The notes below the pieces were generated by a model. That model made no database searches and was not told the origin of the DNA. It was given only the letters and a program-made list of their open reading frames with translations. 64,000 bases of DNA from Christensenellaceae bacterium (GTDB lineage: Bacteria; Bacillota; Clostridia; Christensenellales; UMGS416): positions 266,057-330,056 of the forward strand of contig CAXXDX010000002.1 in assembly GCA_963677605.2 (NCBI GenBank), written 5' to 3'. The stretch's first letter is position 1. Each line of letters starts with the position of its first letter. Below, one piece after another: positions 18,973-34,644 of this stretch. A program made the position numbers and the translations under genes.

Positions 18973-19003
18973 AAAATAAAAGCATATCATCTAATGATAT
19001 GCT
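18973..19003 (-). terminator. Rho-independent terminator after the dTDP-glucose dehydratase gene
   Basis: The minus strand reads AGCATATCAT-TAG-ATGATATGCT followed by TTTATTTTG. Confidence 0.65.
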
Positions 19004-19028
19004 GAAATTCTAATCATCAATTAAATAA

Positions 19029-20021
19029 TTACGGCATATTATTGTATTTTTCTATATACCATAATACCGTGTCACGAAGATAATTATTAAAATCATTTTC
19101 TGGTTTCCAGCCTAGTTCTCTTTTAATTTTACTGGCACTGATTGAATATTTAAAATCATGCCCTTTTCTGTCCTCAATAAATGTAAGCAAATCATCTTTA
19201 ATTTTTGAGTTCGTCTCGCAGTTTATAATGTTAATAATTTTTTTTGCAATCTCTATATTCTTATACTCATTTTTTGTTGAGATATTGTATATCTCACCTG
19301 CTTTTCCATTAAAAACTACCTTTTCAATAGCACGTACATTATCCTCTGCATAAATCCAATCCCGAACATTTTGACCATCTCCGTAGATTGGTATTGGATT
19401 GCCATATAATGCATTTTTAATTACCTGCGGAATAAACTTCTCCTCATATTGGAATGAACCGAAATTATTTGACGAACGAGTTATAGACACAGGAAAGTTA
19501 TAGGTGTTATTCCATGCCATACACATTAAGTCCGCAGATGCTTTGCTGGCCGAGTATGGATTTCCCGGATTAAGCTTTGAATTTTCATCAAATTCCTCAT
19601 TAAAATCTGCACTCCCGTAAACTTCATCAGTAGAAATCTGAATATACCGTTTGTTTGATAGCTCTGTCCTCCACGATTCTTTTGCTGCCTGCAGCAATGT
19701 AAGTGTGCCTATAATATTGGTTTCTGCAAAAACATCTGCACTTTTTATTGATCTATCCACATGGCTTTCCGCTGCAAAATTTATAATATAATCAATTTTA
19801 TTATTATTTATTACATGGTATACAGCGTCATAATCTCTTATGTCGCCTTTGATAAACTTATATCTCTTATTATTTTCAACATGTTTAAGATTACTGAGAT
19901 TTGCAGCATATGTTAAAACATCAAAATTTATAACATTTACATCCTCATATTCTTTTAGTATGTGTAATACAAAGTGTGAGCCTATAAACCCGGCTCCTCC
20001 TGTTACCATTATATTTTTCAC
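19029..20021 (-). CDS. rfbB: dTDP-glucose 4,6-dehydratase
   Basis: 330-aa ORF with VTGGAGFIGSHF, STDEVYG and the YSASKASAD catalytic YxxxK. Its GTG start overlaps the upstream stop codon (GTGA). Confidence 0.9.
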   Translation of the reverse strand: MKNIMVTGGAGFIGSHFVLHILKEYEDVNVINFDVLTYAANLSNLKHVENNKRYKFIKGDIRDYDAVYHVINNNKIDYIINFAAESHVDRSIKSADVFAETNIIGTLTLLQAAKESWRTELSNKRYIQISTDEVYGSADFNEEFDENSKLNPGNPYSASKASADLMCMAWNNTYNFPVSITRSSNNFGSFQYEEKFIPQVIKNALYGNPIPIYGDGQNVRDWIYAEDNVRAIEKVVFNGKAGEIYNISTKNEYKNIEIAKKIINIINCETNSKIKDDLLTFIEDRKGHDFKYSISASKIKRELGWKPENDFNNYLRDTVLWYIEKYNNMP

Positions 20022-21295: not shown

Positions 21296-22029
21296 ATCTG
21301 CCCCCTGATTACTTTTTCCAAATTATAAGAGCCTTTGCTATTGCCATGCGTGTTTTTAAAAATACGCTTTCTGTAGTTTGTATATATTTTAAAATAAAGC
21401 TTTATAAGCTTCCAAAAAGAATAATTCGTTTCAGCTTTCTTATAACCTTTAATATCGATGTTTGCAATGTTTTTTGTATACTTCAATATCTCCATAGAAA
21501 CATACACAAACTCAGTATTTGCTCTTATTACTTTATGCCTTATGTCTCTGTTCATTATTCTATAACTTGACACTTTTATATCCTTCGGCAGCTTCGTAAG
21601 TACTCTGAACAGTAAATCTCTCATTACAGAACCAAATCCCCTGGGCCCTAAATAAGGCATTATTCCGTATACCACGTCGTAGCCTTCCAGTGCTTTATTA
21701 TAGAGCCTTTTTATATCGCTTGGATCCTGCTCCAAGTCGTCATCGATTATAACAGTATACTCATACCTGGCAAAACTCAACCCACAAAGCGTAGCACTTT
21801 GCTGTCCGTAGTTTCGATCCAGCTTTATTGCTATAACGCTTTTATTGATAATGGCCAAGCCCGATATCTTCTCCCAACTGTTATCCAAGCTGCCATCATC
21901 AACGAGTATTATCTCATAGTCATCAAACTGACCAAGCACGTATAAAAGCTCTTCCACCAGCTTTGAAACTGTTTTTTCTGAGTTGTAAACAGGTACTACG
22001 ACCGAGATGCTGGAATCAATTTTTTTCAT
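21292..22029 (-). CDS. family-2 glycosyltransferase of the polyprenyl-phosphate sugar transferase type (ArnC/GtrB/DPM1-like)
   Basis: 245-aa ORF with SVVVPVYNSEKTV, ILVDDGSLDNS, DRNYGQQSA and IIDDDLEQDP (DxD). Confidence 0.75.
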   Translation of the reverse strand: MKKIDSSISVVVPVYNSEKTVSKLVEELLYVLGQFDDYEIILVDDGSLDNSWEKISGLAIINKSVIAIKLDRNYGQQSATLCGLSFARYEYTVIIDDDLEQDPSDIKRLYNKALEGYDVVYGIMPYLGPRGFGSVMRDLLFRVLTKLPKDIKVSSYRIMNRDIRHKVIRANTEFVYVSMEILKYTKNIANIDIKGYKKAETNYSFWKLIKLYFKIYTNYRKRIFKNTHGNSKGSYNLEKVIRGQI

Positions 22030-23119
22030 AACACTCGCCTATTCGTTTTGCAATCTCTTCACAATCTTCGGGTTTCATCTTTGCATGCATCGGAAGGCGA
22101 AGCATACATTGGCATACATGCTCTGTGGCGTGTAACGCTGTTTTTCCCATATTTTGCCATTTCCCCGCCGTATGCAGCGGCACATAGTGGATAACTGCCT
22201 CAATTCCTGCCTCTTTAAGAAGATTTGCAACCTTTTGTTTCTGCGCTTCATCCTCCATCACTATATAAAACACATGCGCGTTGTTCTTGTTATTATCAGG
22301 AACCAGCGGAAGGTGTATGCCATGCTTTTTAAACGGCTCAAGAGCCTTCATGTAGCAGTCATATATAAGCCTCTGCTTGGCCGTTATCTCTTCCGCCCTG
22401 TCAAGCTGCGCGCATAAAACAGCGGCAGCAATATTGCTCATCTTGGCATTCATACCAACATCCTGCCATGAATAAAAAGAAACTTCTCCGTTCAAAAAAG
22501 CCCTTCTGTCCGTTCCGTTTTCATATATAATATCAAGTTTTTTTATAATGCTTTCATCGTTTAAAATTACAGCGCCGCCTTCATCGGAAGATACGTTTTT
22601 TGTCTTATGAAAAGATATTATCCCAGCATCGCCGATTGCACCCAACGGCTTGTCATTATATTTTGCGCCAAACGAAAGAGCTGCATCCTCTATTATCTTA
22701 ATATCCGAAAAAGCTCCTCTTAAACGCTCCATGTCACATGAAGCACCTCCGTAATGGGTTGGTATCACGCACACGGTTTTTGCGGTTTTGCGTTTCAGTG
22801 CGTCATCTATGTCCATCACTAAAGTTTCAGGATCAATGTCGCAGAAAACTGGATCCAAACCGAGCCGAAGTATGCTGTTTGCTGCCGAAGGATACGTAAA
22901 TGACGGCAAAATCACTTCCCCGCCTTTCGGAAACTCATAAGCAAAAAGCAATAAATCAAGTGCGGTTGAACCGTTTGCGGTTAAGTAAACTTTGCATCCG
23001 TAATAGTCCGAAAGTCTTTTTTCAGCTTCACTCAAAAAATCCGTGCCCGAAAGCAGCGCTTCTGTTACATTAAGCGCTTCATTTTCATCATAGTACGTTT
23101 CTTTGAATTTTATGCTCAT
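22016..23119 (-). CDS. DegT/DnrJ/EryC1/StrS family PLP-dependent sugar aminotransferase
   Basis: 367-aa ORF with a candidate PLP-lysine block (ISFHKTKNVSSDEGGAV), plus PTHYGG and IEDAALSFGA. Confidence 0.88.
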   Translation of the reverse strand: MSIKFKETYYDENEALNVTEALLSGTDFLSEAEKRLSDYYGCKVYLTANGSTALDLLLFAYEFPKGGEVILPSFTYPSAANSILRLGLDPVFCDIDPETLVMDIDDALKRKTAKTVCVIPTHYGGASCDMERLRGAFSDIKIIEDAALSFGAKYNDKPLGAIGDAGIISFHKTKNVSSDEGGAVILNDESIIKKLDIIYENGTDRRAFLNGEVSFYSWQDVGMNAKMSNIAAAVLCAQLDRAEEITAKQRLIYDCYMKALEPFKKHGIHLPLVPDNNKNNAHVFYIVMEDEAQKQKVANLLKEAGIEAVIHYVPLHTAGKWQNMGKTALHATEHVCQCMLRLPMHAKMKPEDCEEIAKRIGECYEKN

Positions 23120-24639
23120 CTTACTACCTTATAAACCTTTACAGACCAGTTTTTATTATCAGCAAATTTTACAATACGCATCGCATACGGCGAGTAAAAC
23201 TCGGTTTGAAGCTCACACTTTAAATCAAGAAATTCTTTCATGTCTTCATAGTATGGATATATGTTGCCGTAAACGATATTCCACACAGGGCGTGTTTCAT
23301 AAATATAGTCCATCTCCTCAGGATATATTATATACTCAATCCCGTTTTTATTCACATAGTCTGCAAAAGACATATTGTTGTCATCCAAATATCCTAAGTT
23401 TCTGTAATCATAAAGCGCGTCATAGGATAAAGCATATTCCGCATTAAGGTTTGCAAGCACTTTCGCATCTTCCGGAACTGCATTTTCAATATCGTTAAGA
23501 TATTCTTTATAATCATTATTTATATATGGCATCACCTGCATGGCAGATGATATTACAGTCAATACAGCAACTACCGCAATAACAAAAATTTTAAATCTCT
23601 TTATCTGATTTATCAAAAATATAGTAAGAATAAAGCTTGTTACAAACATCAGAAAGTAAGAAGGCTGTGAATATCTCCCTATAATTATATAGCCGATGTT
23701 TACAGCTATTACAGGAAAAATATACGCAAGCACTTTCTTGTTCCAAAATGCATATATAGCTCCTCCTATAATTGCTATAGCAAATACCGCAAGCTGTGCT
23801 TTTATCCATGGCGTATAGTATGTTCCGGAAATCCACAGCCACAGCTTTTGATAATATGGAACTATAGCTTTGATTTTCTGACTAAAAGTCATGGTAACGC
23901 CCAGATGATCTCCGTATTTGAGGTAATGCGTAATAAACTGCGAGTCGAAAATATAGCTTATGCCTATAAACAGCCCAGCAAACAGCGCAACAATCCCCAC
24001 CAAAACAGCTAAGTTTTTAATCTTAGCCTTTTTGTCAATTGCAATATAATAAATATACACGCTGCCTACTGCAAGAGCCGCGATAAACGAATTAGGATGT
24101 ATGCCTATCATAATCCCTATTATTAAGCCGGTAACAATATCATTTTTTATTGACCACGAACCAATATTTTTATACAAATAATATAGAGCAAATAACATCC
24201 CGAATGCTATAATTATCTCCTGCCTTGCAAAATGCGAAGCGTACAGAAACTGAACATTAAATGCCAGAGCCGCAGCTGATACTGCTAAAAAAATCTTATT
24301 CCCTGATATGACATATACCAGCTTATAAAAGACATATAATAATGCGCATCCGAAAATCAGCGACAAAAGCCTTACCGCAAACAGATTATAACCAAACACC
24401 ATTATAAAAGGCATCTGCAAAATATGAAAAATTGTTTTTATCGCGTGCGGATATCTGGGAAGCAAATCGAAAAACGTTTCAGTGGAGCTTACGCCCTCAT
24501 TCATCATGGTTCTCGTAAGTCCCGAAAGCCACGACTCATCCGAGTGCATGAATGGGAATTTATCAAGAAAAAAAAGATTTATAAGAAAATACAATCCCAA
24601 TAAAGATATCAATATTATGTTTTTGTTTTCTTTCTTCAT
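23116..24639 (-). CDS. GT-C fold membrane glycosyltransferase (ArnT/PMT-like)
   Basis: 507-aa ORF with about 11-12 hydrophobic helices. An acidic motif lies in the first predicted outside loop (FPFMHSDESWLSG). The C-terminal ~110 aa are soluble. Confidence 0.6.
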   Translation of the reverse strand: MKKENKNIILISLLGLYFLINLFFLDKFPFMHSDESWLSGLTRTMMNEGVSSTETFFDLLPRYPHAIKTIFHILQMPFIMVFGYNLFAVRLLSLIFGCALLYVFYKLVYVISGNKIFLAVSAAALAFNVQFLYASHFARQEIIIAFGMLFALYYLYKNIGSWSIKNDIVTGLIIGIMIGIHPNSFIAALAVGSVYIYYIAIDKKAKIKNLAVLVGIVALFAGLFIGISYIFDSQFITHYLKYGDHLGVTMTFSQKIKAIVPYYQKLWLWISGTYYTPWIKAQLAVFAIAIIGGAIYAFWNKKVLAYIFPVIAVNIGYIIIGRYSQPSYFLMFVTSFILTIFLINQIKRFKIFVIAVVAVLTVISSAMQVMPYINNDYKEYLNDIENAVPEDAKVLANLNAEYALSYDALYDYRNLGYLDDNNMSFADYVNKNGIEYIIYPEEMDYIYETRPVWNIVYGNIYPYYEDMKEFLDLKCELQTEFYSPYAMRIVKFADNKNWSVKVYKVVR

Positions 24640-24659
24640 AATCCTCTATGCAATCTGTT

Positions 24660-25292
24660 TCATATCTTTTTCACTACAAAATACTGTGAATTATAATTAT
24701 CTTCACATAGCTCAATTGTTCCGGATTTTTCAATTATTAAACCGGCATCTTTTATAAACTCCGAAAACTTCTCCACTGTTCTGAAAGAGAAAAACCTCTC
24801 TCCCCTGCCACCATAGTCTTTAAAGCCTTCATTGCTTTTTTGTTTGTCGCCATACTGACACAAAATAATCATCCCGTTCAGCTTTAATACTCTTTTAAGC
24901 TCATATATAACAGAAGGCATCTCAGCGTTTGGTATATGCAAAAGACAGTTCATCGCATAGATTACATCAAATGAATTATCCGCAAATGTCATGTCGGAAA
25001 AATCCATAACATGTGCATCAATCCCCTTATCCCAACACCTTTTAACATGCTCTTGCGATAAATCCACAGCGGTGACATCAAGACCGTTTTCCATAAAAAA
25101 CAAACTGTCCTGCCCGGTTCCCGCGCCTATTTCAAGAATGCTTTTTAAACCTCTATCTTTAATTATCGAAAGAAAGTCATTCCGCAAGTCAATTTTCCAA
25201 TCGCTTTTTATCTTAGCATCTCTTTCAACCACATTCTTATTATAATAATCTTTCAGCTGAGCTTTATTATTGTCCATTATTGAACCTTTCAT
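24660..25292 (-). CDS. class I SAM-dependent methyltransferase
   Basis: 210-aa ORF with motif I ILEIGAGTGQDSLFF and the acidic post-I residue in VTAVDLS. Confidence 0.85.
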   Translation of the reverse strand: MKGSIMDNNKAQLKDYYNKNVVERDAKIKSDWKIDLRNDFLSIIKDRGLKSILEIGAGTGQDSLFFMENGLDVTAVDLSQEHVKRCWDKGIDAHVMDFSDMTFADNSFDVIYAMNCLLHIPNAEMPSVIYELKRVLKLNGMIILCQYGDKQKSNEGFKDYGGRGERFFSFRTVEKFSEFIKDAGLIIEKSGTIELCEDNYNSQYFVVKKI

Positions 25293-25467
25293 GAAGATGA
25301 GTATTAATAATATACCATATTTTTCATTAAAAAGTTTAGTTCATATTAATCATATAATACTATTAATAAAAACCTGTTTAGAATGTTTTTAAAGCACTTA
25401 GATAACAAACCCCTGCGGACATGTGCCTGTATTGATCTTTTATTTTTATCTAACAATTTAGTTAACC

Positions 25468-25497
25468 AATAAAAATCCGCGGACATGTGCCGCGGAT
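25468..25497 (-). terminator. Rho-independent terminator ending the sulfur-relay operon
   Basis: The minus strand reads ATCCGCGG-CACATGT-CCGCGGAT followed by TTTTTATTGG. Confidence 0.65.
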
Positions 25498-25637
25498 TTC
25501 AATGATTAATTCTTTTGTCCGCTCGCAAAGCGCAAAACATAAAAATGCATAAGTGAATTTATTCACGAATTTTTTGTGTTTTGTAAGACTCTCGCCCGAA
25601 TAATTTTTCGGGCGAAAGCAAAGCTTTGCTTTGCGTA

Positions 25638-27224
25638 TTAGTCTGTTACTACAGGATAGCCTTCTGCAATCCAGCCCACAGCCATTCCAAAGTGGAGTGA
25701 TACTGCGTCATGGCCCATCATGCGAAGAACTGCTGTTGTCTGGCCTGCTGTCTGGCCTGAATAGCATGCAACGATAAGCTTGCCTGACGGAAGCTCGCTG
25801 AAGTCCATGTCAGCACCGAAAGGTATGTTAATTGCGCCTGCGATGTGGCCTGCAGCAAAGTCTTCTGCTTTTCTTATGTCAACTACTGTAGCTTCGCCTG
25901 CGTCAACTGCTGCCTGAGCGCCGTCCCAACCGATTTTGAAGTTTGCGTTTTCTTCCATGCCAACTGCCACGAAGTAATCTTCAACTGCTTTAAGAAGCAC
26001 TGCGTCAAAGCTTACGCCTGCGTCTGAAATCTCAACTGCTTCAGTGTCAACATAAGCTTCATAGCCTTCAACAGCCATTGCGCCTTTGTTGTAACCTGAT
26101 TTTACAGAGTAAGCATCGATGCCAAGCATGCGCATAAGAGCTGTTGCCTGTCCTGCTGTCTGTCCTGAATAGCAGTATACATAAACAGGTTCGTCTGTCG
26201 GAAGCATTGAAACCTTTTCTGCAAGGTCTGAGCCCCATGAAGCGAGAACTGCGCCTTTGATGTGGCCTTCGTCATATACGTCCTGCTGGCGGATAGAAAC
26301 TATGTTAAGCTCTTCGCCTGTGTCCATTTTCTCAAAGAGTGCTTCCCATGAAATCATAGGATTTGCGAACTCGCCTGCAAAGTATGCGTTAGCTGCAGCT
26401 GTTTTCACATATGTTGTCCAGCCGCCCATGCCGCTTTTAAGTGATACAGCGTCATAGCCGAGTGCGCGAAGAACTGCAACAGTCTGTCCTGCTGTCTGTC
26501 CTGAATAGCAAGCAACGATGATCTTTTTGCCTTCGAAGTCTGCAAATTTTTCCTGCATGCCTTCGCCGAAAGGTACGTTTACAGCGCCGTCGATGTGTGC
26601 TGCGTTGTAATCATCAGCCTTGCGGATGTCCATCACTGTAAGGTCGCCTGCTGCGATAAGCGGTGCAGCTGCGTCCGAAGCCATGATGTTGTTTGCGTTG
26701 TCAGCTACTGTGTTGAAGTACTCTTCAACAAACTCAAGTGCTTCTTTGTTAAATTTAGCTTTTGCGTCAGGAAGCTCGTTAGCTGCTGTTTCCACATAAG
26801 CTTCAAAGCCTTCAGTCTTTGATGCGCCGAGGTTATATCCTGATTTAACAGAATATGCTTCGATGCCGAGTATATTAAGGAGGGCAACAGTCTGTCCTGC
26901 TGTCTGTCCTGAATAGCAGTATACATAAACAGGTTCGTCTGTCGGAAGCATTGAAACCTTTTCTGCGAGGTCTGTGCCCCATGCTGCAAGGTATGCGCCT
27001 TTGATGTGGCCTGCTTCATAAACGTCGCTCTGACGGATGCTCAGAATGAACGGCTCGTCGCCGGCGTCGATTTTAGCAAAGAGGTCGTCCCAAGTGATGA
27101 TGCGGCTGCCTGGGTACTCCGCAAAATAGTCAGTGGCCGCGCTTTCAAGCGCATTTCCTCCGGAACATGCTGTCACAGCAAACACCATGATAGCAGCCAT
27201 AAGGATTACTAATAGTTTTTTCAT
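25638..27224 (-). CDS. lipoprotein with four tandem rhodanese domains
   Basis: Signal peptide with lipobox MKKLLVILMAAIMVFAVTAC. The active-site loop CYSGQTAGQ occurs four times. Halves 1-2 and 3-4 are clearly duplicated (PTDEPVYVYCYSGQTAGQ...SVKSGYN appears twice). Confidence 0.88.
   Translation of the reverse strand: MKKLLVILMAAIMVFAVTACSGGNALESAATDYFAEYPGSRIITWDDLFAKIDAGDEPFILSIRQSDVYEAGHIKGAYLAAWGTDLAEKVSMLPTDEPVYVYCYSGQTAGQTVALLNILGIEAYSVKSGYNLGASKTEGFEAYVETAANELPDAKAKFNKEALEFVEEYFNTVADNANNIMASDAAAPLIAAGDLTVMDIRKADDYNAAHIDGAVNVPFGEGMQEKFADFEGKKIIVACYSGQTAGQTVAVLRALGYDAVSLKSGMGGWTTYVKTAAANAYFAGEFANPMISWEALFEKMDTGEELNIVSIRQQDVYDEGHIKGAVLASWGSDLAEKVSMLPTDEPVYVYCYSGQTAGQATALMRMLGIDAYSVKSGYNKGAMAVEGYEAYVDTEAVEISDAGVSFDAVLLKAVEDYFVAVGMEENANFKIGWDGAQAAVDAGEATVVDIRKAEDFAAGHIAGAINIPFGADMDFSELPSGKLIVACYSGQTAGQTTAVLRMMGHDAVSLHFGMAVGWIAEGYPVVTD
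26148..26222. repeat. intragenic direct repeat, copy 1 (75 nt identical to 26892-26966)
   Basis: I read the exact string ctgtcctgctgtctgtcctgaatagcagtatacataaacaggttcgtctgtcggaagcattgaaaccttttctgc at both positions. The offset is 744 nt, or 248 codons. Confidence 0.95.
26892..26966. repeat. intragenic direct repeat, copy 2
   Basis: Identical 75-nt string. The flanks are similar but diverged. A second conserved pair lies at about 25738 and 26482 with the same 744-nt offset. Confidence 0.95.
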
Positions 27225-27239
27225 CTTTTGTCCTTTCTG

Positions 27240-28133
27240 TTACGAAGCGTCTTGCCTCGTGGGTGTGATATCTTCTGCCGGCGGCTGCGGGTTTTCAACA
27301 TCCTCATATTCCAACCAAGCCCCGTCATATATCCTTACATCTTTGTATCCTGCATCCTTGAGCGCCGCATAGCTCTGGGCAGCCCTCACCGATGTTTTGC
27401 AGAATAATATTATTTTAGTTTCAGGCGTAATGCCTTCCGCTATATATGTGCTCTGTATGTCGCGCGGAGTTTTATACTCTCCGTTTGCATACATGTTCCA
27501 CTTATATTCCTTGTGACACGAGCCGGGGATTGTTCCCGCGTAGTACTCTTCGTCGCTGCGTGTGTCTATAATCACCGTGTTTTCATCCGGCATGTTGATT
27601 ATCGACTTCACATAGTCCAGCGTCACAATAAGTGATTTCTGATAGTCGCCCGCAACATACTCAGCCTCGGATGTTTCCACCTTGGCAGAGTTCATTGCGA
27701 CATCCGCTTCCTTGAGAGCTTCAAATCCGCCGCTTATGACGCGAACATTGAAGTTTGAATACATGTTAAGCGTCCACTGCACACGTGCGGCCTGCATATT
27801 ACTTGCATTGTCATAAACCAGGATCTCGTCGCTTGCGGTGATTCCTGCAGCGCTCATGACCGCCTCTACCTGCGCGGTGTCCGGAAGCATGTTTGCATAC
27901 GGCTCACCGACTGTAAGCGCACCCATAGGAATGTTTACAGCTCCTACAACATGGTTTAAGCCATAGTCTTCAGCGCTTCTTACATCCACGACAGTTATGC
28001 CGTCTTCGATAAGCGCTGCCGCTTCTTTTGGTGTCACAATGTATTCGCCGGTTTCAGCAAAATCAAAGTTTGCACATGCCGAAAACGAAAGAATCATCAA
28101 TGCAGTCAGAATTATTAGCATTCTCTTTTTCAC
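27240..28133 (-). CDS. lipoprotein with two rhodanese domains (inactive N-terminal plus catalytic C-terminal), thiosulfate/3-mercaptopyruvate sulfurtransferase architecture
   Basis: Lipobox LMILSFSAC. The first domain has Asp at the active-site position (VYDNASNMQAAR). The second has FCKTSVRAAQ. I place the start at the GTG at 28131-28133, preceded by AAGGAG with 7-nt spacing. The longer track ORF overlaps the upstream gene. Confidence 0.82.
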   Translation of the reverse strand: MKKRMLIILTALMILSFSACANFDFAETGEYIVTPKEAAALIEDGITVVDVRSAEDYGLNHVVGAVNIPMGALTVGEPYANMLPDTAQVEAVMSAAGITASDEILVYDNASNMQAARVQWTLNMYSNFNVRVISGGFEALKEADVAMNSAKVETSEAEYVAGDYQKSLIVTLDYVKSIINMPDENTVIIDTRSDEEYYAGTIPGSCHKEYKWNMYANGEYKTPRDIQSTYIAEGITPETKIILFCKTSVRAAQSYAALKDAGYKDVRIYDGAWLEYEDVENPQPPAEDITPTRQDAS

Positions 28134-28137
28134 GGTA

Positions 28138-29370
28138 CTACTCCTTTGAAGCCGCAATTGCAGCAATTATGTCTTCCTTGCTAAGCTCATTTTCAGACAA
28201 AGTCTCATATATCTTGCCGTCTTTTATGATTACAACCGCCGGGCAGTCCTCGCAGCCTAAACGCTCAGCCAAGCCCTTTGATTTATAAGTATCAACCTTA
28301 TGGCAGCAGTGATTGTCATACATTTCTTCGATTTCCTCAATAACTGTAAGGAACTCGCGCTGTGTATGGTCTACTGCGTCATAAACGTATGCAATGCCGT
28401 CGCCCATCATTATCTGATGCTCGAATATTTCGCTTTCTGCAATATATTTTTCAGCCATAACACCGGCTGTCGCCGCATCGCCTACGCATGTTGCAACCTG
28501 GCGAAGGAAACGCTCGCGTACATCGCCTGCTGCAAATACACCTGAGATGTTTGTGCGCATTTCTTCATCTGTTAAAACATAACCGCGGTCTGTCATCTTA
28601 ACGATGTCTTTATAAATAGCTGTGTTAGGAACAAATCCGATAAACAGGAAGCATGTCGCGCAGTCAATTCTCTCACTTTCGCCTGTCTTGAGATTTTTGA
28701 GCACAACGCCTTCAAGCTCTTCGCCGCCGTAGTATTCATCTACAACAGTATTCCACTTAAATTCCATTTTAGGATTGGCAAGCGCTGCAGCTTTAGCTAT
28801 CTCGTTGCAGTCCATAACACCTTCATCATGAAGAACGGAAACTGTAACTTTGCTTGCAAACTTTGTAAGGAACATGCCTTCTTCTATAGCGGCATCTCCT
28901 GAGCCTATTACAACAACTTCCTTGCCTGTGTTGGCAGCAGCGTCGCATGTGGCGCAGAATGCAATTCCCTTGCCTATATACTGCTCTTCGCTGTCGATTC
29001 CGAGAACTCTCGGTTTTGAACCGTTTGCAATGATAACAGCTTTTGCTTCATATCTGTTTCTGAATGTTTCAAGGATTTTGATATCTCCCGAGAAATCCAC
29101 AGTTTTAACGTTTGTAAGTTTAAAATCCACTCCGAACTTTTTCGCCTGATCTTTAAAAAGGTTCATGAGGTCTATTCCAGAAATTCCTTCAGGGAATCCC
29201 GGATAGTTTTCTATATCATTTGTGTTTGTAGCGATGCCGCCGACCAAAGCCTGCTCTATAATAAGAGTTTTAAGCTTTGCTCTTCCGCAGTATATGCCTG
29301 CTGTAAGCCCTGAAGCTCCGCCGCCTACGATAACGACATCATATTGTTCAACTTTTTTCTCTCTAGCCAT
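28138..29370 (-). CDS. thioredoxin-reductase-like FAD flavoprotein fused to a C-terminal thioredoxin-fold-like domain
   Basis: VVIVGGGASGLTAG, redox-active CATCD, VVVIGSGDAAIEEG and FAAGDV define a low-Mr TrxR core of about 310 aa. About 100 extra C-terminal residues contain HCCH and CEDCPAVVIIKDGK. Confidence 0.8.
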   Translation of the reverse strand: MAREKKVEQYDVVIVGGGASGLTAGIYCGRAKLKTLIIEQALVGGIATNTNDIENYPGFPEGISGIDLMNLFKDQAKKFGVDFKLTNVKTVDFSGDIKILETFRNRYEAKAVIIANGSKPRVLGIDSEEQYIGKGIAFCATCDAAANTGKEVVVIGSGDAAIEEGMFLTKFASKVTVSVLHDEGVMDCNEIAKAAALANPKMEFKWNTVVDEYYGGEELEGVVLKNLKTGESERIDCATCFLFIGFVPNTAIYKDIVKMTDRGYVLTDEEMRTNISGVFAAGDVRERFLRQVATCVGDAATAGVMAEKYIAESEIFEHQIMMGDGIAYVYDAVDHTQREFLTVIEEIEEMYDNHCCHKVDTYKSKGLAERLGCEDCPAVVIIKDGKIYETLSENELSKEDIIAAIAASKE

Positions 29371-29381
29371 AATATTATCCT

Positions 29382-29939
29382 TTACATAAAGTACTTAACC
29401 AGCAGTTTGCTGCCGATCACTGCGCCGCCGAACATAAACAGGGCAAAAACCCAGCCTGAAAGCGACAGTGAAGCGATTCCCGAAAACAGTGCGCCGATGT
29501 TACAGCCTGCTGCAATGCGTGCACCGTATCCCATAAGAAGTCCGCCCAGTGTTGCGGCAGCAACCTGTTTCCATGACTTAATTTTCTTAAATTTGAAACC
29601 TGAAGCCATAAGCACAGCAAAAAGTGCTCCGAATATAATTCCTATGTTTCTCCATGTGGGTGCATGGCTTAAAAAGCCTGCTTCAAGCGTGGCCTGAGCA
29701 CCCGGGGAAGAAAAGTAATACCATTTGTCAACCGAGCCGCCCACAGCTTCAAAGAGCCAGGCTCCCCAGTTTGCAAATATTCCCGAAACGCCCCACGGAT
29801 TGCCTGTTGTAGCAAATGTAACTATCTGAAAAACAGAAAGCAGAACCGCTCCGGCAACATATGGCAACGCATTTTTAAACCACATCTTGTAGAATTCATT
29901 TTGTTTTATATTGTCAAAAAATTTCTTCAAGTTTCTCAC
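29382..29939 (-). CDS. YeeE/YedE family sulfur-transport membrane protein, C-terminal-half equivalent
   Basis: 185-aa hydrophobic ORF with the GARIAAGCNIGALFSG cysteine loop typical of the family. Confidence 0.75.
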   Translation of the reverse strand: MRNLKKFFDNIKQNEFYKMWFKNALPYVAGAVLLSVFQIVTFATTGNPWGVSGIFANWGAWLFEAVGGSVDKWYYFSSPGAQATLEAGFLSHAPTWRNIGIIFGALFAVLMASGFKFKKIKSWKQVAAATLGGLLMGYGARIAAGCNIGALFSGIASLSLSGWVFALFMFGGAVIGSKLLVKYFM

Positions 29940-29964
29940 CTCAATTAAGTTTTAATACTTTAAG

Positions 29965-30192
29965 TTATGCTTTTTCTATGATGCATTCCCATTCGCCGTC
30001 GTCAACTTCTTCAAGCTCAACTTCGTGACCTTGTTTGCGTGCCCATTCAGGAACGTTTTTCATTGCGCAGCTATGGTCGATCTGAACGATAAGCACATCG
30101 CCTGATTCAAGTTCTTCAAGTGCTTTTTCTGCTTTGATAAGTGGTACAGGGCAAGCCTCGCCCAAACAATCCAATACGACTTCTTTACTCAT
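29965..30192 (-). CDS. TusA/YeeD/SirA-like sulfur carrier protein
   Basis: 75 aa starting at MSKEVVLDCLGEACPVPLIKAEKAL, with the CPxP motif. A GGAGGAAACAAAA RBS precedes this ATG. The longer track ORF (to 30261) overlaps the upstream gene. Confidence 0.88.
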   Translation of the reverse strand: MSKEVVLDCLGEACPVPLIKAEKALEELESGDVLIVQIDHSCAMKNVPEWARKQGHEVELEEVDDGEWECIIEKA

Positions 30193-30233
30193 TTTTGTTT
30201 CCTCCGAAAAATTATTATTTAAAAAGGATTGCC

Positions 30234-30941
30234 TTAATCCTCTTTTTTGCGGTTTTCCCATTTATGTGCGATTACGTATATTACTGCGATGATAAGAAGG
30301 TTGCACAAGAGTCCTCCGAACCACCCGAATGCTGTTGAATTAAATAATTTTGTAAATACATCAGGAAGGAATATTCTCTTTCCGGTTACTATGAAGTTGC
30401 GATACCACCATCCATAGTCATGAGCTCCCCACAGCGAGCCTACAACGAAAAAGAAAAGTGATATAAGCTGCATCCAGAATCCTTCGCCTATTCTCATCAG
30501 TGTGCCCGATGCGCAGCCGCCTGCAATAACCATACCGATACCAAACATAAATGCGCCGATACCTGTTGCAATTGAAACCGGAGCCACATAGCTTTGTCCC
30601 GGAATAGCCTGTCCGTTTACAAATGCTCCGTACTTTATTGCTGTAAACGCAATTGAAGTTATGGCAAATGCTATAAGAACCGCTCTTGTTACGGTAGTTG
30701 ATCCTGTAAGGTAGGGATCGCGCATAGAAGCTGTGAAGCAAAAGCGTGCGCGCTGCAGGATAAAACCAAAAGCTAAACCTGTCATCCAATAGAGCCCGAG
30801 GTTTTCACCTCTTAACGTCAAAAGAACGCCTATTACAACGATGATTACGATAAGCCCTAATGCTATAGGTATCTGATTCATCCTTTTTTTGCGTTTTCTG
30901 CTTGATGCTCTGGAAGAAGTTCTGATTGTGCTTTCTGACAT
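30234..30941 (-). CDS. YeeE/YedE family sulfur-transport membrane protein, N-terminal-half equivalent
   Basis: 235-aa hydrophobic ORF with the QRARFCFTAS and IAGGCASGTLMR cysteine loops. Confidence 0.75.
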   Translation of the reverse strand: MSESTIRTSSRASSRKRKKRMNQIPIALGLIVIIVVIGVLLTLRGENLGLYWMTGLAFGFILQRARFCFTASMRDPYLTGSTTVTRAVLIAFAITSIAFTAIKYGAFVNGQAIPGQSYVAPVSIATGIGAFMFGIGMVIAGGCASGTLMRIGEGFWMQLISLFFFVVGSLWGAHDYGWWYRNFIVTGKRIFLPDVFTKLFNSTAFGWFGGLLCNLLIIAVIYVIAHKWENRKKED

Positions 30942-31048
30942 GATTACACCTCTTTGTTAGTTTGTTAATTATTTAACATATTGACCTGTTTTATTTTATC
31001 ATACTTTGTTAAAAATCTGTCAATCCTTTTTCTTATGCAGTATTAGAT

Positions 31049-31077
31049 TTGTTTATATCAAACTTTGGTGCTATAAT
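31049..31077 (+). promoter_or_regulatory. putative promoter of the LysR gene
   Basis: TTGTTT (31049-31054), a 17-nt spacer, then TATAAT (31072-31077) preceded by TGC (extended -10). It lies 43 nt upstream of the ATG. Confidence 0.45.
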
Positions 31078-31119
31078 ATCCATTAATATCAAAGCAATAT
31101 CAGGGATTTAGACATTAAA

Positions 31120-32016
31120 ATGAATATAGAATCTTTAAAATATTTCTATATGATTGCCAAGGCGGGAAACATAAGTTCCGTCGCAAAAAGCGTGCACCTT
31201 TCTCAGTCTGCACTATCCCAACAGATTCAGCGCCTTGAAACAGATTTTGAAAAAAAGCTTCTGATACGCTCCAATAAAGGCGTTCAGCTCACACCTGACG
31301 GTAAGATAGTTTACAAATTTGCAAGCAACATCCTTCGCACATACGAACACATGATGGAAGAGCTTGAAAGCGAATCAAGGAAAAACATAATTATAAAGAT
31401 TGAAGCTCCGTCGTCTCTTGCAGACTATGCGCTTCCCTGCACGATGATAAAGGCCAATGATAAGTATCAATTGCATAAGTACGAGCTTTCCAGCAATCCG
31501 TCCTATGAAATACTTCAGAATGTTTCAAACAACATTTGCGATGTAGGATTTTCATACATGAAAACTCCGAACGGATATGACGGAGTGCTGTGCCAAAGAG
31601 CCGGCATAAACCGTATAATTCTTGCTGCACCCAACAATTCCGATTATCCAGATGCAATAAGCCTGTCAGAGCTTTCAGACATATGCCTTATAACACTTAC
31701 CGGCAAAACCGATATTAACGAAATCATCTTCGATAAGCTTGAAAAACTGGGAGTGCCCAAAAACGAGCTGAACTGCAACCTCCGCGTGGAAGGCATTGTT
31801 GGAGCTAAAATGATGATAAACAGGGGTTACGGCATGGCTTTCCTTCCTTATATTTCGGTTAAGGAAGAGCTTTATAAAAAGCAGTTTAAGGAAGTAAAAG
31901 TAGAAGGTCTTGATATGGATCTTGACATCTATCTTTTATATAAACAAATCCACACAGAACATGTGGAGGCATTTTTGGAATGGTTTAAACAAAATGGAGA
32001 AGCAAGCTTCTGCTGA
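31120..32016 (+). CDS. LysR family transcriptional regulator
   Basis: 298-aa ORF with the N-terminal HTH LKYFYMIAKAGNISSVAKSVHLSQSALSQQIQRLE and a LysR substrate-binding domain. It is divergent from the YeeE operon. Confidence 0.92.
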   Translation: MNIESLKYFYMIAKAGNISSVAKSVHLSQSALSQQIQRLETDFEKKLLIRSNKGVQLTPDGKIVYKFASNILRTYEHMMEELESESRKNIIIKIEAPSSLADYALPCTMIKANDKYQLHKYELSSNPSYEILQNVSNNICDVGFSYMKTPNGYDGVLCQRAGINRIILAAPNNSDYPDAISLSELSDICLITLTGKTDINEIIFDKLEKLGVPKNELNCNLRVEGIVGAKMMINRGYGMAFLPYISVKEELYKKQFKEVKVEGLDMDLDIYLLYKQIHTEHVEAFLEWFKQNGEASFC

Positions 32017-32021
32017 TACAT

Positions 32022-32252
32022 TTATCTTACTGTAAATGTTACTTCCCACACGCCGTTCATAACTTCTTCTATATTAACGTCGTGTTTTTTGTCCAAATAC
32101 TTGTTTTTTATAGCTTCAATCGTACAGCTGTGGTCCACCACAATCATAAACGATTCCCCGCTTTTTGTGTGGGCAAGCTCCTGTTCTATTTTTAAGATCG
32201 GAACAGGACAAATATCTCCGAAACAGTCGATTAGTTTTATATCTTTTTTCAT
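32022..32252 (-). CDS. TusA/YeeD/SirA-like sulfur carrier protein (second copy)
   Basis: 76-aa ORF: MKKDIKLIDCFGDICPVPILKIEQEL, with the CPxP motif. It starts 3 nt after the stop of the upstream permease gene. Confidence 0.88.
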   Translation of the reverse strand: MKKDIKLIDCFGDICPVPILKIEQELAHTKSGESFMIVVDHSCTIEAIKNKYLDKKHDVNIEEVMNGVWEVTFTVR

Positions 32253-32255
32253 TTT

Positions 32256-33668
32256 CTACATCATAATGGACACATATCCTGCAACAAGCAGAACTGCGAA
32301 AGTTATTGCAACACCCATTACTCCCTTCTTTAGCATAAAATCAGTGTCAAGGCCGTATCCCACAGGGATGGCTCTTATTGAAGTCGGCAGCAGGAATGCG
32401 CAGTTGCACGCCGCAGCCGTAATATAAACATATTTAAGCGGCACATCGCTTATAACAGAGACAATACCGATTACAAGAGGCACTGCAACAGCGACGGCTG
32501 CCGTGTTGCTTGATGCATTGGATAAAAACATTGAAAAAGCGATTATTATTAGCAGTATCGGCAGGGTTTTGTTCAAGTCAATAAGCGACACAGCTTGTGA
32601 AACTCCTGAAAGCGCGCCTGTTGATATAAGCATATTGCCTATTGCAAGCCCGCCTGAAAACAGAATCATAAGCCCCCAGTTGATGTTCTTTTCCGCCTGC
32701 TTCCACGTGATGAGCCGTTCGTTTTTTTCGCCGTTTATAACAAAAGCTACAACGCCGAACAGCATAAACGCGAAAAAAGGCTTAAACTCCGGCAGTATGC
32801 TTGCATAAAGCGGCCTCGCAAAAGACAAAGCAACCGGAACAACAAACAGCACAAGCGATATTACCTGAGATCTTTTCATTTTTCCCGCCAGCTTATACTG
32901 CTCTTTAAAATACTTGCTGCTTCCCGGCATATTTTTTGTTTTAAACCTAAGAAGCAGAATATATGCAACAATGCCCAACGATAAAAGCGCAAGATACGGA
33001 AGCATCTTTGCAGTCCATTCAATGAACATGAACTCTCTTCCCGTAAAGCTTTCAATGTGAGTGATAGCGACAAGGTTCATCGCGCCGCCCAAAGGCGTAC
33101 CAAAGCCCCCAAGCCCCGCGCCCCATGCGACCATCATAAGTATCATCTTGAGAAGATAGTCGCTTTCAGCCTCGTTCTCGCCACCTGCATACTGCATCAT
33201 AGCATATGCAATGGGACATAACGCTGCGACAACCACGGCGTTCGGAAGAACCGAGGACAGCACAACCGACAGCATAAACCACACGACAAGCTGCCACTTT
33301 ACCGAGGTTCCTATGACGCTCAGTGCTTTTAGCGCAATCCTCTTATCGAGGCCGGTATTTTTCCATGTTATTGTAAGCACGTTTGCACCAAGCAAGAGAA
33401 CAACTATCTGAGATGCGTAGTTTTTTAATACATCAGCCATTGGCATTATGGAAAACAGGCTGTTTATGACAATGGGCAAAAGCGCTGTCACCGCTATATG
33501 AAAAGGCCTCGTTATCCACCAGTAGACCATCAGAGCAAGCGTTGAAACGGCAATTCTTGCTTCAAATGAAAAGATGCTTTTAGGCATAACAAAAGCGACA
33601 GCAGCAAATAATATTGCTCCCGCTGCCAGATGAATAAACCGCTTTTTTGCATCCTTTGTCATTTTCAT
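32256..33668 (-). CDS. DASS/SLC13-type (ArsB/NhaD superfamily) anion:cation symporter
   Basis: 470-aa polytopic ORF. Hairpin-tip-like motifs VLPNAVVVAAL and LSNASSNTAAVAV resemble the paired SNT motifs of DASS transporters. Confidence 0.7.
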   Translation of the reverse strand: MKMTKDAKKRFIHLAAGAILFAAVAFVMPKSIFSFEARIAVSTLALMVYWWITRPFHIAVTALLPIVINSLFSIMPMADVLKNYASQIVVLLLGANVLTITWKNTGLDKRIALKALSVIGTSVKWQLVVWFMLSVVLSSVLPNAVVVAALCPIAYAMMQYAGGENEAESDYLLKMILMMVAWGAGLGGFGTPLGGAMNLVAITHIESFTGREFMFIEWTAKMLPYLALLSLGIVAYILLLRFKTKNMPGSSKYFKEQYKLAGKMKRSQVISLVLFVVPVALSFARPLYASILPEFKPFFAFMLFGVVAFVINGEKNERLITWKQAEKNINWGLMILFSGGLAIGNMLISTGALSGVSQAVSLIDLNKTLPILLIIIAFSMFLSNASSNTAAVAVAVPLVIGIVSVISDVPLKYVYITAAACNCAFLLPTSIRAIPVGYGLDTDFMLKKGVMGVAITFAVLLVAGYVSIMM

Positions 33669-33760
33669 TGTCCTATGATTTTACCTACATTGCTGCGTTT
33701 TGTAAACCGCAAATTATCATTTATTCGCAAAATATGCACTCTTGCTTTGCAATAAACCGT

Positions 33761-33792
33761 AAAAAAGCAAAAGCGCACGGATAACCATGCGC
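33761..33792 (-). terminator. Rho-independent terminator after the sugar ABC operon
   Basis: The minus strand reads GCGCATGG-TTAT-CCGTGCGC followed by TTTTGCTTTTTT. Confidence 0.65.
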
Positions 33793-33816
33793 CTTGCCTT
33801 ATGATAGTTGGAAGAA

Positions 33817-34644
33817 CTATTGTTTTACTGCTCCAGATGTTATTCCCTGAATAAAGTACTTCTGTCCCAGCAGATATATTAGAAGAACCGGCAGAGTAGT
33901 TAAGACTATGTCTGCAAAGATAAGATTCCATTTGCTTGTCGTACGTCCGAAGAACTGATAGACAGATATCGTCATTGGATATAGCTTTGTGCTGCTTGTA
34001 AGATACAAAGGCACAAGGAAGTTGCTCCACGTTCCCATAAACTGCAGTATAAAGCATGTTGCGATGATGGGCTTGAGCAACGGCATGATTATATAGAAAA
34101 ACAATCTCACCGAATCCGCACCGTCGATTATCGCAGCCTCATCCATCTCCTGCGGCACTGAACTTACAAAGTTTCTTATAACAAAGACGCAAAACGGTAT
34201 CATCCCGCTCGTAAATGTTACAATTACACCTAGCCGTGAATCTGTCAGGTTAAACAGCTGAAACATTCTGACAAGTGTAATAAAGTTTACAGGCAAAAAC
34301 AGGCCGAACAAAATAAAGTAGTAAATAAAGTTATTTATCTTAGTCTTCTTTCGGCTTAAAACAAAAGCACACATCGCGCACAGCACGACTCCCAGCGTCG
34401 TACTTGTAAGCGAATACACAAGGCTGTTTGTAAAGCCCTGAACAAGCTTGCCTTTTTCTATGACTTCTGCATAGTTTTCAAAATGCCATACTTCGGGAAA
34501 TGCCAGAGACATTCTCGCAGCTTCGTACTTGTCTTTAAACGAGTTTATAACAACCATGTAAAATGGTATTACAACTATAACGCACAGCAGAATGCATATT
34601 ATCTGTTTTATCAATGTATAAATATGTTTCTTTTTGATAACCAT
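33817..34644 (-). CDS. carbohydrate ABC transporter permease (MalG/LplC-like)
   Basis: 275-aa ORF with 6 predicted helices and the EAA-like loop EAAIIDGADSVRLFFYIIMPLLKP. Confidence 0.9.
   Translation of the reverse strand: MVIKKKHIYTLIKQIICILLCVIVVIPFYMVVINSFKDKYEAARMSLAFPEVWHFENYAEVIEKGKLVQGFTNSLVYSLTSTTLGVVLCAMCAFVLSRKKTKINNFIYYFILFGLFLPVNFITLVRMFQLFNLTDSRLGVIVTFTSGMIPFCVFVIRNFVSSVPQEMDEAAIIDGADSVRLFFYIIMPLLKPIIATCFILQFMGTWSNFLVPLYLTSSTKLYPMTISVYQFFGRTTSKWNLIFADIVLTTLPVLLIYLLGQKYFIQGITSGAVKQ

Follow-up and report, generated by a model that had tools for sequence, protein, structure and literature searches.

What use would a bacterium make of rhodaneses held outside its membrane, when these are encoded together with a split channel of the YeeE/TsuA family, a TusA-type sulfur carrier and a thioredoxin reductase (TrxR)-like flavoprotein? 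The question is raised by a locus in a 64,000-nucleotide stretch of DNA from a Christensenellaceae bacterium (assembly GCA_963677605.2, contig CAXXDX010000002.1, positions 266,057 to 330,056), here called the window; coordinates given without a locus label are those of the window. A first, sequence-only reading of the region had proposed a relay that carries sulfane sulfur, or selenium, from the outside to the inside of the cell. Based on sequence comparison, which is the foundation of the whole analysis, we consider it somewhat probable that the locus serves the uptake of thiosulfate or sulfane sulfur and its reduction to sulfide, as is typical of anaerobic fermenters. In the list of open reading frames (ORFs), every gene described in that reading was found in place: six closely packed genes on the minus strand, a LysR gene divergent from them and a DASS–TusA pair that converges on it. 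Pfam/hidden Markov model searches assigned Rhodanese, Sulf_transp, TusA and Pyr_redox_2 domains to the expected ORFs, and the motifs FCFT, GGCASG, AGCNIG, ACPVP, CKTSVRA and the fourfold CYSGQTAGQ were seen in the translations. The sulfur operon stands with small coordinate corrections, but a glycosylation operon downstream of it (19029-25292) had been missed, and the true unit is larger.

Exported rhodaneses, split channel and flavoprotein reductase

The exported part of the operon consists of a two-domain rhodanese (27240-28133, minus strand), which carries the CKTSVRA loop in its C-domain, and a four-domain rhodanese (25638-27224, minus strand), with four CYSGQTA loops. The start of the two-domain protein was corrected and is probably the GTG at 28133, 4 nt past the stop of the TrxR-like gene. 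Both proteins had been read as lipoproteins; their lipoboxes, MKKLLVILMAAIMVFAVTAC and (V)KKRMLIILTALMILSFSAC, proved real and are kept in orthologues. A lipoprotein signal peptide was detected in all 53 of the orthologues of the two-domain rhodanese, and a lipobox in 21 of 39 orthologues of its RdlA-type partner; the other 18 partner N-termini have a basic start and a hydrophobic stretch and were read by eye as type-I signal peptides. Though heuristic, these calls support an extracytoplasmic location of both rhodaneses. The count of six exported persulfide modules is borne out for the number of rhodanese domains, but only five of these have a catalytic Cys: the N-domain of the two-domain protein has Asp at this position and is inactive.

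The same two proteins tie the locus to thiosulfate-reducing anaerobes. The halves of the four-domain rhodanese were found to share 43% and 45% identity, over the full length, with the RdlA-type protein of Halanaerobium, and the two-domain lipoprotein 41% with the rhodanese encoded beside Halanaerobium rdlA. Judged by these alignments, the four-domain rhodanese arose by tandem duplication of a two-domain RdlA unit, and the two-domain lipoprotein corresponds by orthology to the protein that Halanaerobium encodes next to rdlA. Two or four active CY[ST]GQTA loops were present in 33 RdlA-type orthologues, and an exact-sequence look-up of the four-domain rhodanese returned no record. The H. congolense entry Q6Q1E1 ('Rhodanese') was taken to be RdlA. 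As reference we used the supplementary sequences of Booker et al. 2017, with a reciprocal best match to that entry. Halanaerobium displays thiosulfate-dependent sulfide production, and three of its rhodaneses (genes unmapped) were more abundant with thiosulfate (PMC5497025). RdlA is attributed to thiosulfate-reducing anaerobes by Ravot et al. 2005, as that work is cited in PMC5497025, and the genome paper of Spirochaeta smaragdinae, a thiosulfate- and elemental sulfur (S0)-reducing spirochaete, says the same of RdlA (PMC3035371). Spectral counts in one Halanaerobium proteome sample (PMC5497025 Table S3) were 87 for RdlA (Ga0073283_11116), 57 for 11118 and 41 for 11115; thus the RdlA neighborhood was well expressed in that sample. 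Sulfurtransferase activity and thiosulfate induction are on record for the Halanaerobium proteins only (PMC5497025).

The channel is encoded in two pieces instead of as a single TsuA-type polypeptide of about 330-350 aa. Its N-half (30234-30941, minus strand, 235 aa), with a basic cytoplasmic N-terminus, covers positions 1-154 of the PF04143 Sulf_transp profile, and its C-half (29382-29939, minus strand, 185 aa) covers positions 163-310, at scores of 101.9 and 111.9 bits against a Pfam gathering score of 27. The two halves align with residues 7-129 and 192-319, respectively, of TsuA from Spirochaeta thermophila, the structure of which is solved. In this alignment Cys68 (RFCFT) and Cys143 (GGCASG) of the N-half correspond to TsuA Cys22 and Cys91, and Cys146 (AGCNIG) of the C-half to Cys293; all three were invariant in 14 homologues. 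Homologues of the N-half numbered 2159 at E<=1e-10, the best 120 of them at 62-89% identity. Against the curated TsuA models of NCBIfam, the halves scored 69/62 and 49/28 bits, compared with cut-offs of 400/645. Since the TsuA, TsuB, selenium YedE/FdhT and YedF models were all missed widely, the channel is placed in a separate subfamily. As in TsuA, its uptake activity may depend on a TusA-like partner.

Such a partner is encoded between the channel halves: a TusA/TsuB-like carrier of 75 aa with a CPVP motif (29965-30192, minus strand; PF01206), whose best NCBIfam match is TsuB/YeeD, under the cut-off. Its start was corrected and is probably the ATG at 30192; the resulting 75 aa is the length in all homologues. 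A second TusA-like protein with a CPVP motif (32022-32252, minus strand) is convergent on lysR. The two TusA domains scored 87 and 47 bits against a cut-off of 28.6, with the CPxP motifs ACPVP and ICPVP, respectively. The 75-aa carrier is 95-99% identical to its counterparts in Erysipelotrichaceae and Christensenellales metagenome-assembled genomes (MAGs) and 71-91% identical elsewhere, whereas the lysR-side TusA is far more variable (35-83%). The pairing of TusA with LysR is kept in Bacillota loci, and orthologous loci have one to three tandem TusA copies. Three Clostridium sp. MAG loci (L and P numbers are our own labels) were found to encode another, divergent YeeE-C/YeeE-N pair on the other strand (L016 11360-12640, L044 11353-12633 and L049 11284-12573), at 44-47% and 33-34% identity to the window proteins; in these loci the first channel pair is not followed by a TusA or TrxR-like gene.

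The fourth cytoplasmic or membrane component is a low-molecular-weight TrxR-like flavoprotein with a C-terminal thioredoxin (Trx) fold (28138-29370, minus strand). This protein, assigned to Pyr_redox_2, matched the structure of Deinococcus radiodurans TrxR, which has the FAD/NAD(P)H two-domain fold, at 302 bits, and its score of 318.3 bits stayed under the TIGR01292 equivalog cut-off of 343.45. The CATC redox motif was invariant in 62 orthologues, as were two more cysteines at residues 188 (MDCNEIAK) and 240 (TCFxFIGY), where the D. radiodurans enzyme has Ala (RANKVAQ) and Val (GVFIFIGH). The motif HRRxxxR for the NADPH 2'-phosphate is missing: HRRDTLRA aligns with HDEGVMDC, and HDE is conserved in the orthologues. 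Because HRR is replaced by HDE, the flavoprotein is read as linked to NADH or another donor, probably to NADH. The additional Trx-fold noted in the sequence-only reading is present, although its Thioredoxin match is weak (17 bits, Pfam) and it appears redox-inactive, as no Cys in this tail is conserved among the 62 orthologues (the CEDC of the window occurs in about 18%). A role for the tail as an NTRC-like redox partner was ruled out because of this lack of a conserved Cys.

With these parts, the lipoprotein tandem and RdlA-type rhodaneses would, outside the membrane, load the sulfane sulfur of thiosulfate (or of polysulfide or S0) on their loop cysteines and free sulfite. The sulfane sulfur would cross the two-piece YeeE/TsuA-like channel by way of its three cysteines to the dedicated cytoplasmic TusA, the flavoprotein would reduce the TusA persulfide, and the sulfide freed would serve as an electron sink and/or for assimilation.

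Conservation and natural variants of the locus

A scan of one genome per species returned at least 572 relatives of the channel N-half, of which 80 loci were fetched. The window proteins were mapped onto these loci and all ORFs were clustered into families; as many of the contigs are short, the family counts per locus are lower bounds. The neighborhood was found to be strongly kept in these approximately 80 loci from several phyla, and the co-occurrence of the same families is far beyond chance. The recurring families were: (i) for the sulfur relay, the channel N-half (76 loci), the channel C-half (69), TusA (69, with 108 copies), the reductase (62), LysR (58) and the rhodaneses (49, with 80 copies); and (ii) for glycosylation and import, the membrane glycosyltransferase of the GT-C type (55), an ATP-grasp ligase (50), a GT2 glycosyltransferase (44), a DegT aminotransferase (38), an SsuA-like binding protein (38), an ABC ATPase (35), an ABC permease (33), DASS (14) and RmlB (11). 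RmlA may be added at 7 loci, on the assumption that a seven-locus cluster (median 247 aa) is the same as its one annotated case, a 251-aa ORF of L021. Nothing further was conserved across these loci, and neither sel nor cys genes were among the families.

Carriers of the gene set were found in Clostridia, Halanaerobiales and Spirochaetia, as well as in one Anaerolineales and one Erysipelotrichaceae MAG, and include the thiosulfate and S0 reducer Halanaerobium, Sediminispirochaeta MAGs, Dethiosulfatibacter, Fusibacter, Vallitalea, Wukongibacter, Enterocloster and Hungatella. Dethiosulfatibacter and Fusibacter reduce thiosulfate, and Spirochaeta smaragdinae is presumably a member of the genus Sediminispirochaeta. 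The nearest relative of the window, a Christensenellaceae MAG, has the identical gene order and a channel N-half of 95% identity. The core order YeeE-N/TusA/YeeE-C/TrxR-like was seen in no fewer than 570 species, and the full set occurs in at least five gene orders or orientations, with the rhodanese pair often beside or divergent from the GT-C gene instead of behind the reductase. Linkage of the glycosylation set to the sulfur genes was seen almost everywhere, in several gene orders.

Two natural variants are informative as to function. The first is Halanaerobium saccharolyticum, which keeps the rhodanese pair, GT-C, ABC, ATP-grasp, GT2, DegT, LysR and RmlB genes and is without the split YeeE, TusA and TrxR-like genes. 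In their place (L087 1527-4573) are a 419-aa full-length YeeE and a 565-aa flavoprotein with Pyr_redox_2, Pyr_redox_dim and Rhodanese domains, which we take to be the architecture of CoADR-rhodanese and NADH persulfide reductases. This gene displacement supports a role in import and pyridine-nucleotide-driven persulfide reduction, as far as can be judged from analogy with those enzymes. The L087 locus also has a second NMT1-type ABC transporter. The second variant is an uncultured lineage (L055, L089) with the order rhodanese–RdlA–YeeE-N–TusA–YeeE-C–reductase, followed directly by homologues of AsrA and AsrB at 26% and 40% identity, respectively, to the Halanaerobium proteins. In this lineage the relay has as its neighbor the enzyme by which the sulfite half of thiosulfate would be reduced.

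Glycosylation module, rhodanese tail and control region

The downstream operon, entirely on the minus strand, encodes in order a S-adenosylmethionine (SAM) methyltransferase (24660-25292), an ArnT/PMT-like GT-C membrane glycosyltransferase (23116-24639), a DegT/WecE-like sugar 4-aminotransferase (22016-23119), a GT2 glycosyltransferase (21292-22029), an ATP-grasp ligase of the L-amino-acid-ligase (LAL) type identified by family searches (20018-21295) and the dTDP-glucose 4,6-dehydratase RmlB (19029-20021), and is closed by a terminator-like hairpin (18981-19003). RmlB was assigned by TIGR01181 (418.8 bits, cut-off 365), and the aminotransferase scored 328 bits against the 375 of the dTDP-4-amino-4,6-dideoxygalactose transaminase model. 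The GT2 protein best matches the polyprenyl-phosphate sugar transferases ArnC and PgfS. The GT-C assignment rests on homologue annotation and fold, as the protein's own sequence matches fail or sit under cut-off: it scored 20.8 bits (E 4.8e-4) against the Pfam PMT_2 gathering score of 26.1, and searches of NCBIfam and of sequences in the Protein Data Bank gave no match. Its homologues are annotated ArnT/GT39 and carry PMT/PMT_2 (PF02366/PF13231). The AlphaFold model (predicted local distance difference test, pLDDT, 88.8) returned GT-C enzymes for all 27 Foldseek matches at E<=0.001, including ALG12, PglB, AglB, STT3, ArnT, DPY19, Pmt4 and Emb. The acidic HSDE motif in the first outside loop (FPFMHSDESW) is invariant. 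The methyltransferase, in contrast to these conserved genes, was found by family search in no locus other than the window and L012, its closest relative (53% identity); its best NCBIfam matches were the selenoprotein methyltransferase MduS and TehB-type tellurite methyltransferases, all far under cut-off.

Parts of the module are tied together by fusions: GT-C and DegT form one 884-aa protein (P0178; L088 3861-6515), and ATP-grasp and GT2 are read as one 680-aa ORF in Hungatella effluvii (L062 5378-7420). An importer also belongs to this set. The DASS-family anion symporter of the window (32256-33668, minus strand; Pfam DASS/CitMHS) is a real permease coupled to TusA, but it belongs with the glycosylation module and not with the relay: of 50 ATP-grasp loci, 9 have only DASS, 34 only the SsuA-like ABC transporter, none has both and 7 have neither. 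The gene for the SsuA-like binding protein lies beside the ATP-grasp gene in 33 of the 50. We infer from this pattern that the importer supplies the substrate of the ligase. At locus L098, from a lineage with a rhodanese tail in N-G-S and without a DegT gene in this locus, a LIVCS (BrnQ-type) amino-acid transporter gene (16173-17504) follows ATP-grasp in the importer's usual place, a hint of an amino acid as possible substrate of the ligase. Small EamA-domain genes (121-185 aa), in pairs that resemble the ArnE/ArnF flippase, were seen near GT2/ATP-grasp in L006/L038 (1099-1832) and L088 (13455-14407); none is visible beside the module of the window. The DASS or ABC importer was also considered as an entry route for the sulfite released outside. 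This idea was set aside because the importer vanishes together with the module in lineages that keep the relay, the asrAB-joined lineage included, and because the binding-protein gene adjoins the ATP-grasp gene.

The module would make an N-acylated 4-amino-6-deoxyhexose on a polyprenyl carrier, to be attached outside the cell by GT-C. In this route RmlB and DegT would yield the 4-amino-6-deoxyhexose, the ATP-grasp ligase would N-acylate the sugar with a compound imported by DASS or ABC, GT2 would load the sugar on polyprenyl phosphate and GT-C would transfer it on the outside. The module may act on the relay's outer part, in which case the tail of the lipoprotein rhodanese is the likeliest site of modification; GT-C adjoins a rhodanese gene in 34 of 55 loci. 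This tail (EDVENPQPPAEDITPTRQDAS; 27243-27305, minus strand), of about 20 residues, is a variable Pro-rich linker that ends in a terminal [D/N]-x-S-COOH; it is disordered in the predicted model (pLDDT 88 overall, tail < 70). Among 120 homologues the terminal tripeptide was DAS in 99, DNS in 6, DGS in 5, NGS in 5 and NAS in 1 (116/120). In the fetched loci the x-[D/E]-x-S ending was present in 42 of 47 rhodaneses; for 40 of the 42 the locus also contains the GT-C gene, the ATP-grasp gene or both, and the remaining two are on contigs that end directly after the rhodaneses. An orthologue with an N-G-S tail still has the glycosylation module. Three lineages have other tails: ...ESGGGCG (L052, L055, L089, L090), ...PPSGGCGG (P0347, P0349, P0351, P0354) and ...PADAGG (L056). 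Where flanks exist for these lineages (10 kb upstream in L089, 8 kb on each side in L097 and 6-8 kb in L056), GT-C, GT2, DegT, ATP-grasp and importer genes were not found, though a gene absent from a 6-10 kb flank may still sit elsewhere in the genome. The rhodaneses of the two Cys-tailed lineages share 36% identity with each other and 46-48% each with [D/N]-x-S-tailed orthologues; thus the Cys tail arose twice.

Since the tail type covaries with the module, the [D/N]-x-S tail is proposed as a candidate acceptor of GT-C, a tentative assignment that we regard as possible and on balance doubtful. A further step, which we hold to be unlikely, is that a glycan on this tail acts as a 'swinging arm' to shuttle sulfane sulfur from the rhodanese active sites to the YeeE channel. 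The group on such an arm could be a thiol, as in bacillithiol or mycothiol, and in the lineages without the module the encoded Cys of the GGCG(G) tail would take over its role. A prosthetic arm of this kind, borne on a glycan in a sulfur relay outside the cell, has no precedent that we know of.

Control of the sulfur operon was examined in the region between yeeE-N and the LysR-type regulator gene (31120-32016, plus strand; Pfam), which is divergent in 58 loci, nearly all of Bacillota. Alignment of nine orthologous lysR–yeeE intergenic regions revealed a divergent control region (30963-31046) with three conserved elements: (i) a T-N11-A box, CTAATACTGCATAAG, at 31032-31046 in minus-strand reading; (ii) an extended -10 element, TATGATAAAAT, at 30993-31003 on the minus strand; and (iii) a perfect palindrome, TGTTAATTATTTAACA (TGTTAAT..ATTAACA), at 30963-30978 between the -10 and the yeeE-N ribosome-binding site, invariant in all nine. 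From the -10 the box is some 30-45 nt away on the upstream side, a spacing that may suit a LysR activator site. The promoter call rests on this cross-species alignment because a simple promoter scan gave no more sites than the shuffled expectation. The locus is most likely LysR-controlled, as predicted from these elements, and the palindrome may be the operator of a second regulator or an RNA hairpin. No riboswitch or leader, S-box and T-box included, was detected by an Rfam scan of 18500-34500 at E<=1. The operon ends at a clean hairpin with a T-run (11-bp stem, 6 GC pairs; minus strand), the coordinates of which were corrected from 25468-25497 to 25472-25500. A partial second copy of the stem, GGCACATGTCCGC (within aggcacatgtccgcagggg), was seen about 50 nt downstream, at 25408-25425 on the minus strand, in the spacer before the next operon.

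Alternative explanations and known systems

An outside-to-inside relay ending in sulfide is consistent with the exported rhodaneses, the three-cysteine channel, TusA, the reductase and the kinship to RdlA, asrAB and CoADR-rhodanese, whereas the way in which the sulfur moves, its passage from rhodanese to channel and the compound on which the reductase acts are inferred. Several points weigh against this relay. The YeeE halves, TusA, the TrxR-like protein and LysR all score under the curated NCBIfam cut-offs of the named families. As TsuA/TsuB need no outside rhodanese to import thiosulfate, the channel here may not be fed by the rhodaneses, and LysR-type control and kinship to TsuAB would suit plain assimilation as well as dissimilation. 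The asr genes were searched for and not found in the 64-kb window, and are absent from most loci. As for the glycosylation part, the covariation of tail and module depends on three module-less lineages and few independent events. Finally, many source genomes are MAGs or short contigs, whose taxonomy and contiguity can be wrong.

The alternative that survives best is a plain assimilatory importer of the TsuA/TsuB type, in which intact thiosulfate is taken up for cysteine synthesis, the flavoprotein reduces an S-sulfo or persulfide adduct, and the rhodaneses and glycosylation genes share no more than their regulation with it, as envelope functions such as the detoxification of polysulfide or cyanide, with no sulfur going from the rhodaneses into the channel. 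We think this rather unlikely. The homology to TsuA with all three cysteines, the TsuB-like partner and the lack of asr or another terminal reductase in the window would suit it. Sulfur assimilation is commonly under the control of LysR-type regulators such as CysB and CysL, and such control is also mentioned in PMC5322559. However, the rhodanese pair and the channel genes stay together in different phyla despite many rearrangements, the pair is orthologous to RdlA and its neighbor in thiosulfate reducers, asrAB adjoins the operon in one lineage, and the partner flavoprotein in Halanaerobium is of the persulfide-reductase type with a rhodanese domain of its own. The S-box or T-box leader that many Firmicute sulfur-assimilation operons have is also missing.

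A reversal of the flow, with TusA and the flavoprotein mobilizing sulfur and YeeE exporting it to the rhodaneses to be put on a surface glycan, would make a modified envelope the primary product and not sulfide. The tight linkage of sulfur and glycosylation genes, the rhodanese pair adjoining GT-C, the extra TusA beside LysR and the importer, and the coupling of the importer to the ATP-grasp gene are what this scheme would predict, yet it is quite improbable in our judgment. The rhodaneses, channel, TusA and reductase are kept in some lineages where the whole glycosylation module is missing, and in one of these the operon is joined to asrAB; therefore the sulfur relay has a function of its own. 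In addition, the known members of the YeeE family import (PMC11582611).

The linkage might instead reflect a genomic island, in which horizontal transfer moves two operons jointly although each is useful by itself and the two are not functionally coupled. Channel and TusA identities across phyla are unusually high (60-99%), suggesting horizontal spread, and a terminator separates the two operons in the window. Against this explanation, which we rate as very improbable, the linkage survives at least five gene orders or orientations in distant taxa, the rhodanese genes are often placed with GT-C instead of with the channel genes, and the rhodanese tail motif changes exactly where the module is missing, twice independently. 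The weakest rival is the uptake or detoxification of selenium (or tellurium), with YedE/YedF-like import, reduction of selenite by the rhodaneses and TrxR-like protein and a selenium-type LysR, which the sequence-only reading had left open and which we consider extremely improbable: although the best NCBIfam matches of both channel halves (YedE/FdhT) and of LysR (selenium-metabolism LysR) are selenium models, ExtH and TehB-like models match weakly, and YedE, YedF and LysR_Se are predicted selenium genes (PMC5322559), the scores are far under the cut-offs (selen_YedE_FdhT 97 vs 350 bits, seleno_YedE 28 vs 200, YedF 46 vs 110 or 79, LysR_Sec_metab 155.8 vs 250), no selD, selA, selB, yedF-DsrE domain or DUF3343 was among the conserved families of the approximately 80 loci (flanks up to 10 kb), and the positive links point to thiosulfate reduction.

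The uptake and reduction of sulfane sulfur to sulfide, if borne out, would bear on a route that has so far been vague in fermentative, non-sulfate-reducing anaerobes, where the conversion of thiosulfate and S0 to sulfide is summed up as 'rhodanese plus Asr'. The locus offers a concrete cross-phylum model with parts in cultured organisms, and the organisms concerned include Halanaerobium of oil and gas wells, gut Enterocloster and Hungatella, marine Clostridia and spirochaetes. Practical matters touched by the model are reservoir souring, corrosion and hydrogen sulfide production in the gut. Furthermore, the GT-C linkage and tail covariation raise the possibility that sulfur trafficking involves a new kind of protein modification, and the glycan-arm reading would be categorically new if true.

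Many of the elements are already known, namely RdlA, 'rhodanese plus Asr', TsuA/TsuB, SoxT import, PmpAB, CoADR-rhodanese, Sud and three-component glycosylation. The sequence-only reading had seen no characterized precedent for the system; this does not hold for the rhodanese pair, which is the known RdlA pair (PMC5497025), but no paper was found on the composite. Specifically, in the literature we found no description of (i) the exported RdlA pair together with a split three-cysteine YeeE, TusA, an HDE-type reductase and LysR/TusA; (ii) the constant linkage to a GT-C module with interchangeable importers; or (iii) the covariation of [D/N]-x-S and GGCG(G) tails.

The closest relative is the RdlA pair of Halanaerobium, which is alike in its CY[ST]GQTA loops, signal peptide and adjacent lipoprotein rhodanese, and which sits in the same GT-C/ABC/ATP-grasp/GT2/DegT/LysR context; the window version differs in being duplicated and lipid-anchored. 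The published pathway combines rhodanese with AsrABC, without export, YeeE, TusA, a dedicated reductase or glycosylation, and when that paper was searched for the terms YeeE, thioredoxin, transporter and signal peptide, none of them was found (PMC5497025). TsuA/TsuB (YeeE/YeeD; structures 6LEO, 8J4C and 8K1R) share the Sulf_transp fold, the three cysteines and a TusA-type partner, which in the window is encoded between the channel halves. The window differs from them by its split channel, scores far under cut-off, TrxR-like reductase, exported rhodaneses and regulator. A YeeE-like hand-over from an extracytoplasmic carrier to cytoplasmic sulfurtransferases is also the concept behind SoxT1A/SoxT1B, and an outside-to-inside relay via the YeeE-like SoxT has been proposed for sulfur oxidizers (PMC11582611). 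SoxT, however, works in oxidation with SoxYZ, DsrE and sHdr, whereas the partners in the window are rhodanese lipoproteins outside and TusA plus a reductase inside. PmpA/PmpB provide a precedent for a two-protein YeeE (PMC11582611). Their halves have about 130 aa, four helices and one Cys each, compared with 235 and 185 aa in the window, where the N-half has two Cys.

On the reductive side, Npsr and CoADR-RHD are flavoprotein disulfide reductases with a sulfur-carrier rhodanese domain that reduce persulfide or polysulfide to sulfide. That architecture replaces TusA and the TrxR-like protein in the Halanaerobium locus; the window enzyme is instead of the low-molecular-weight TrxR type, with a separate TusA and a Trx tail that has no conserved Cys. 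Sud of Wolinella is a periplasmic polysulfide-sulfur transferase that feeds the molybdoenzyme PsrABC at the periplasmic face and is alike in that an exported rhodanese-type protein delivers sulfane sulfur to a membrane system for reduction. The window relay, in contrast, is proposed to bring sulfur into the cytoplasm, and no Psr or Phs was among the conserved families. Three-component glycosylation is known from Arn (ArnB/ArnC/ArnT), PgfS/PgfM of Streptococcus mutans, CsbB/GtcA/YfhO and the Pmt lipoprotein O-mannosylation of actinobacteria. The module shares with the Arn/Pgf-type systems the DegT aminotransferase, an ArnC/PgfS-like GT2 and a GT-C with a DE loop, and at some loci the EamA genes. 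It is not a full Arn set: the ArnB and ArnC models were matched at 162 vs 631 and 96 vs 529 bits, no ArnA or ArnD homologue was among the conserved families, and the sugar route in the window is dTDP-based (RmlB, with RmlA at some loci). To the Arn/Pgf plan the window module adds a LAL-type ATP-grasp ligase, a coupled importer, a link to a sulfur relay and a rhodanese with a [D/N]-x-S tail.

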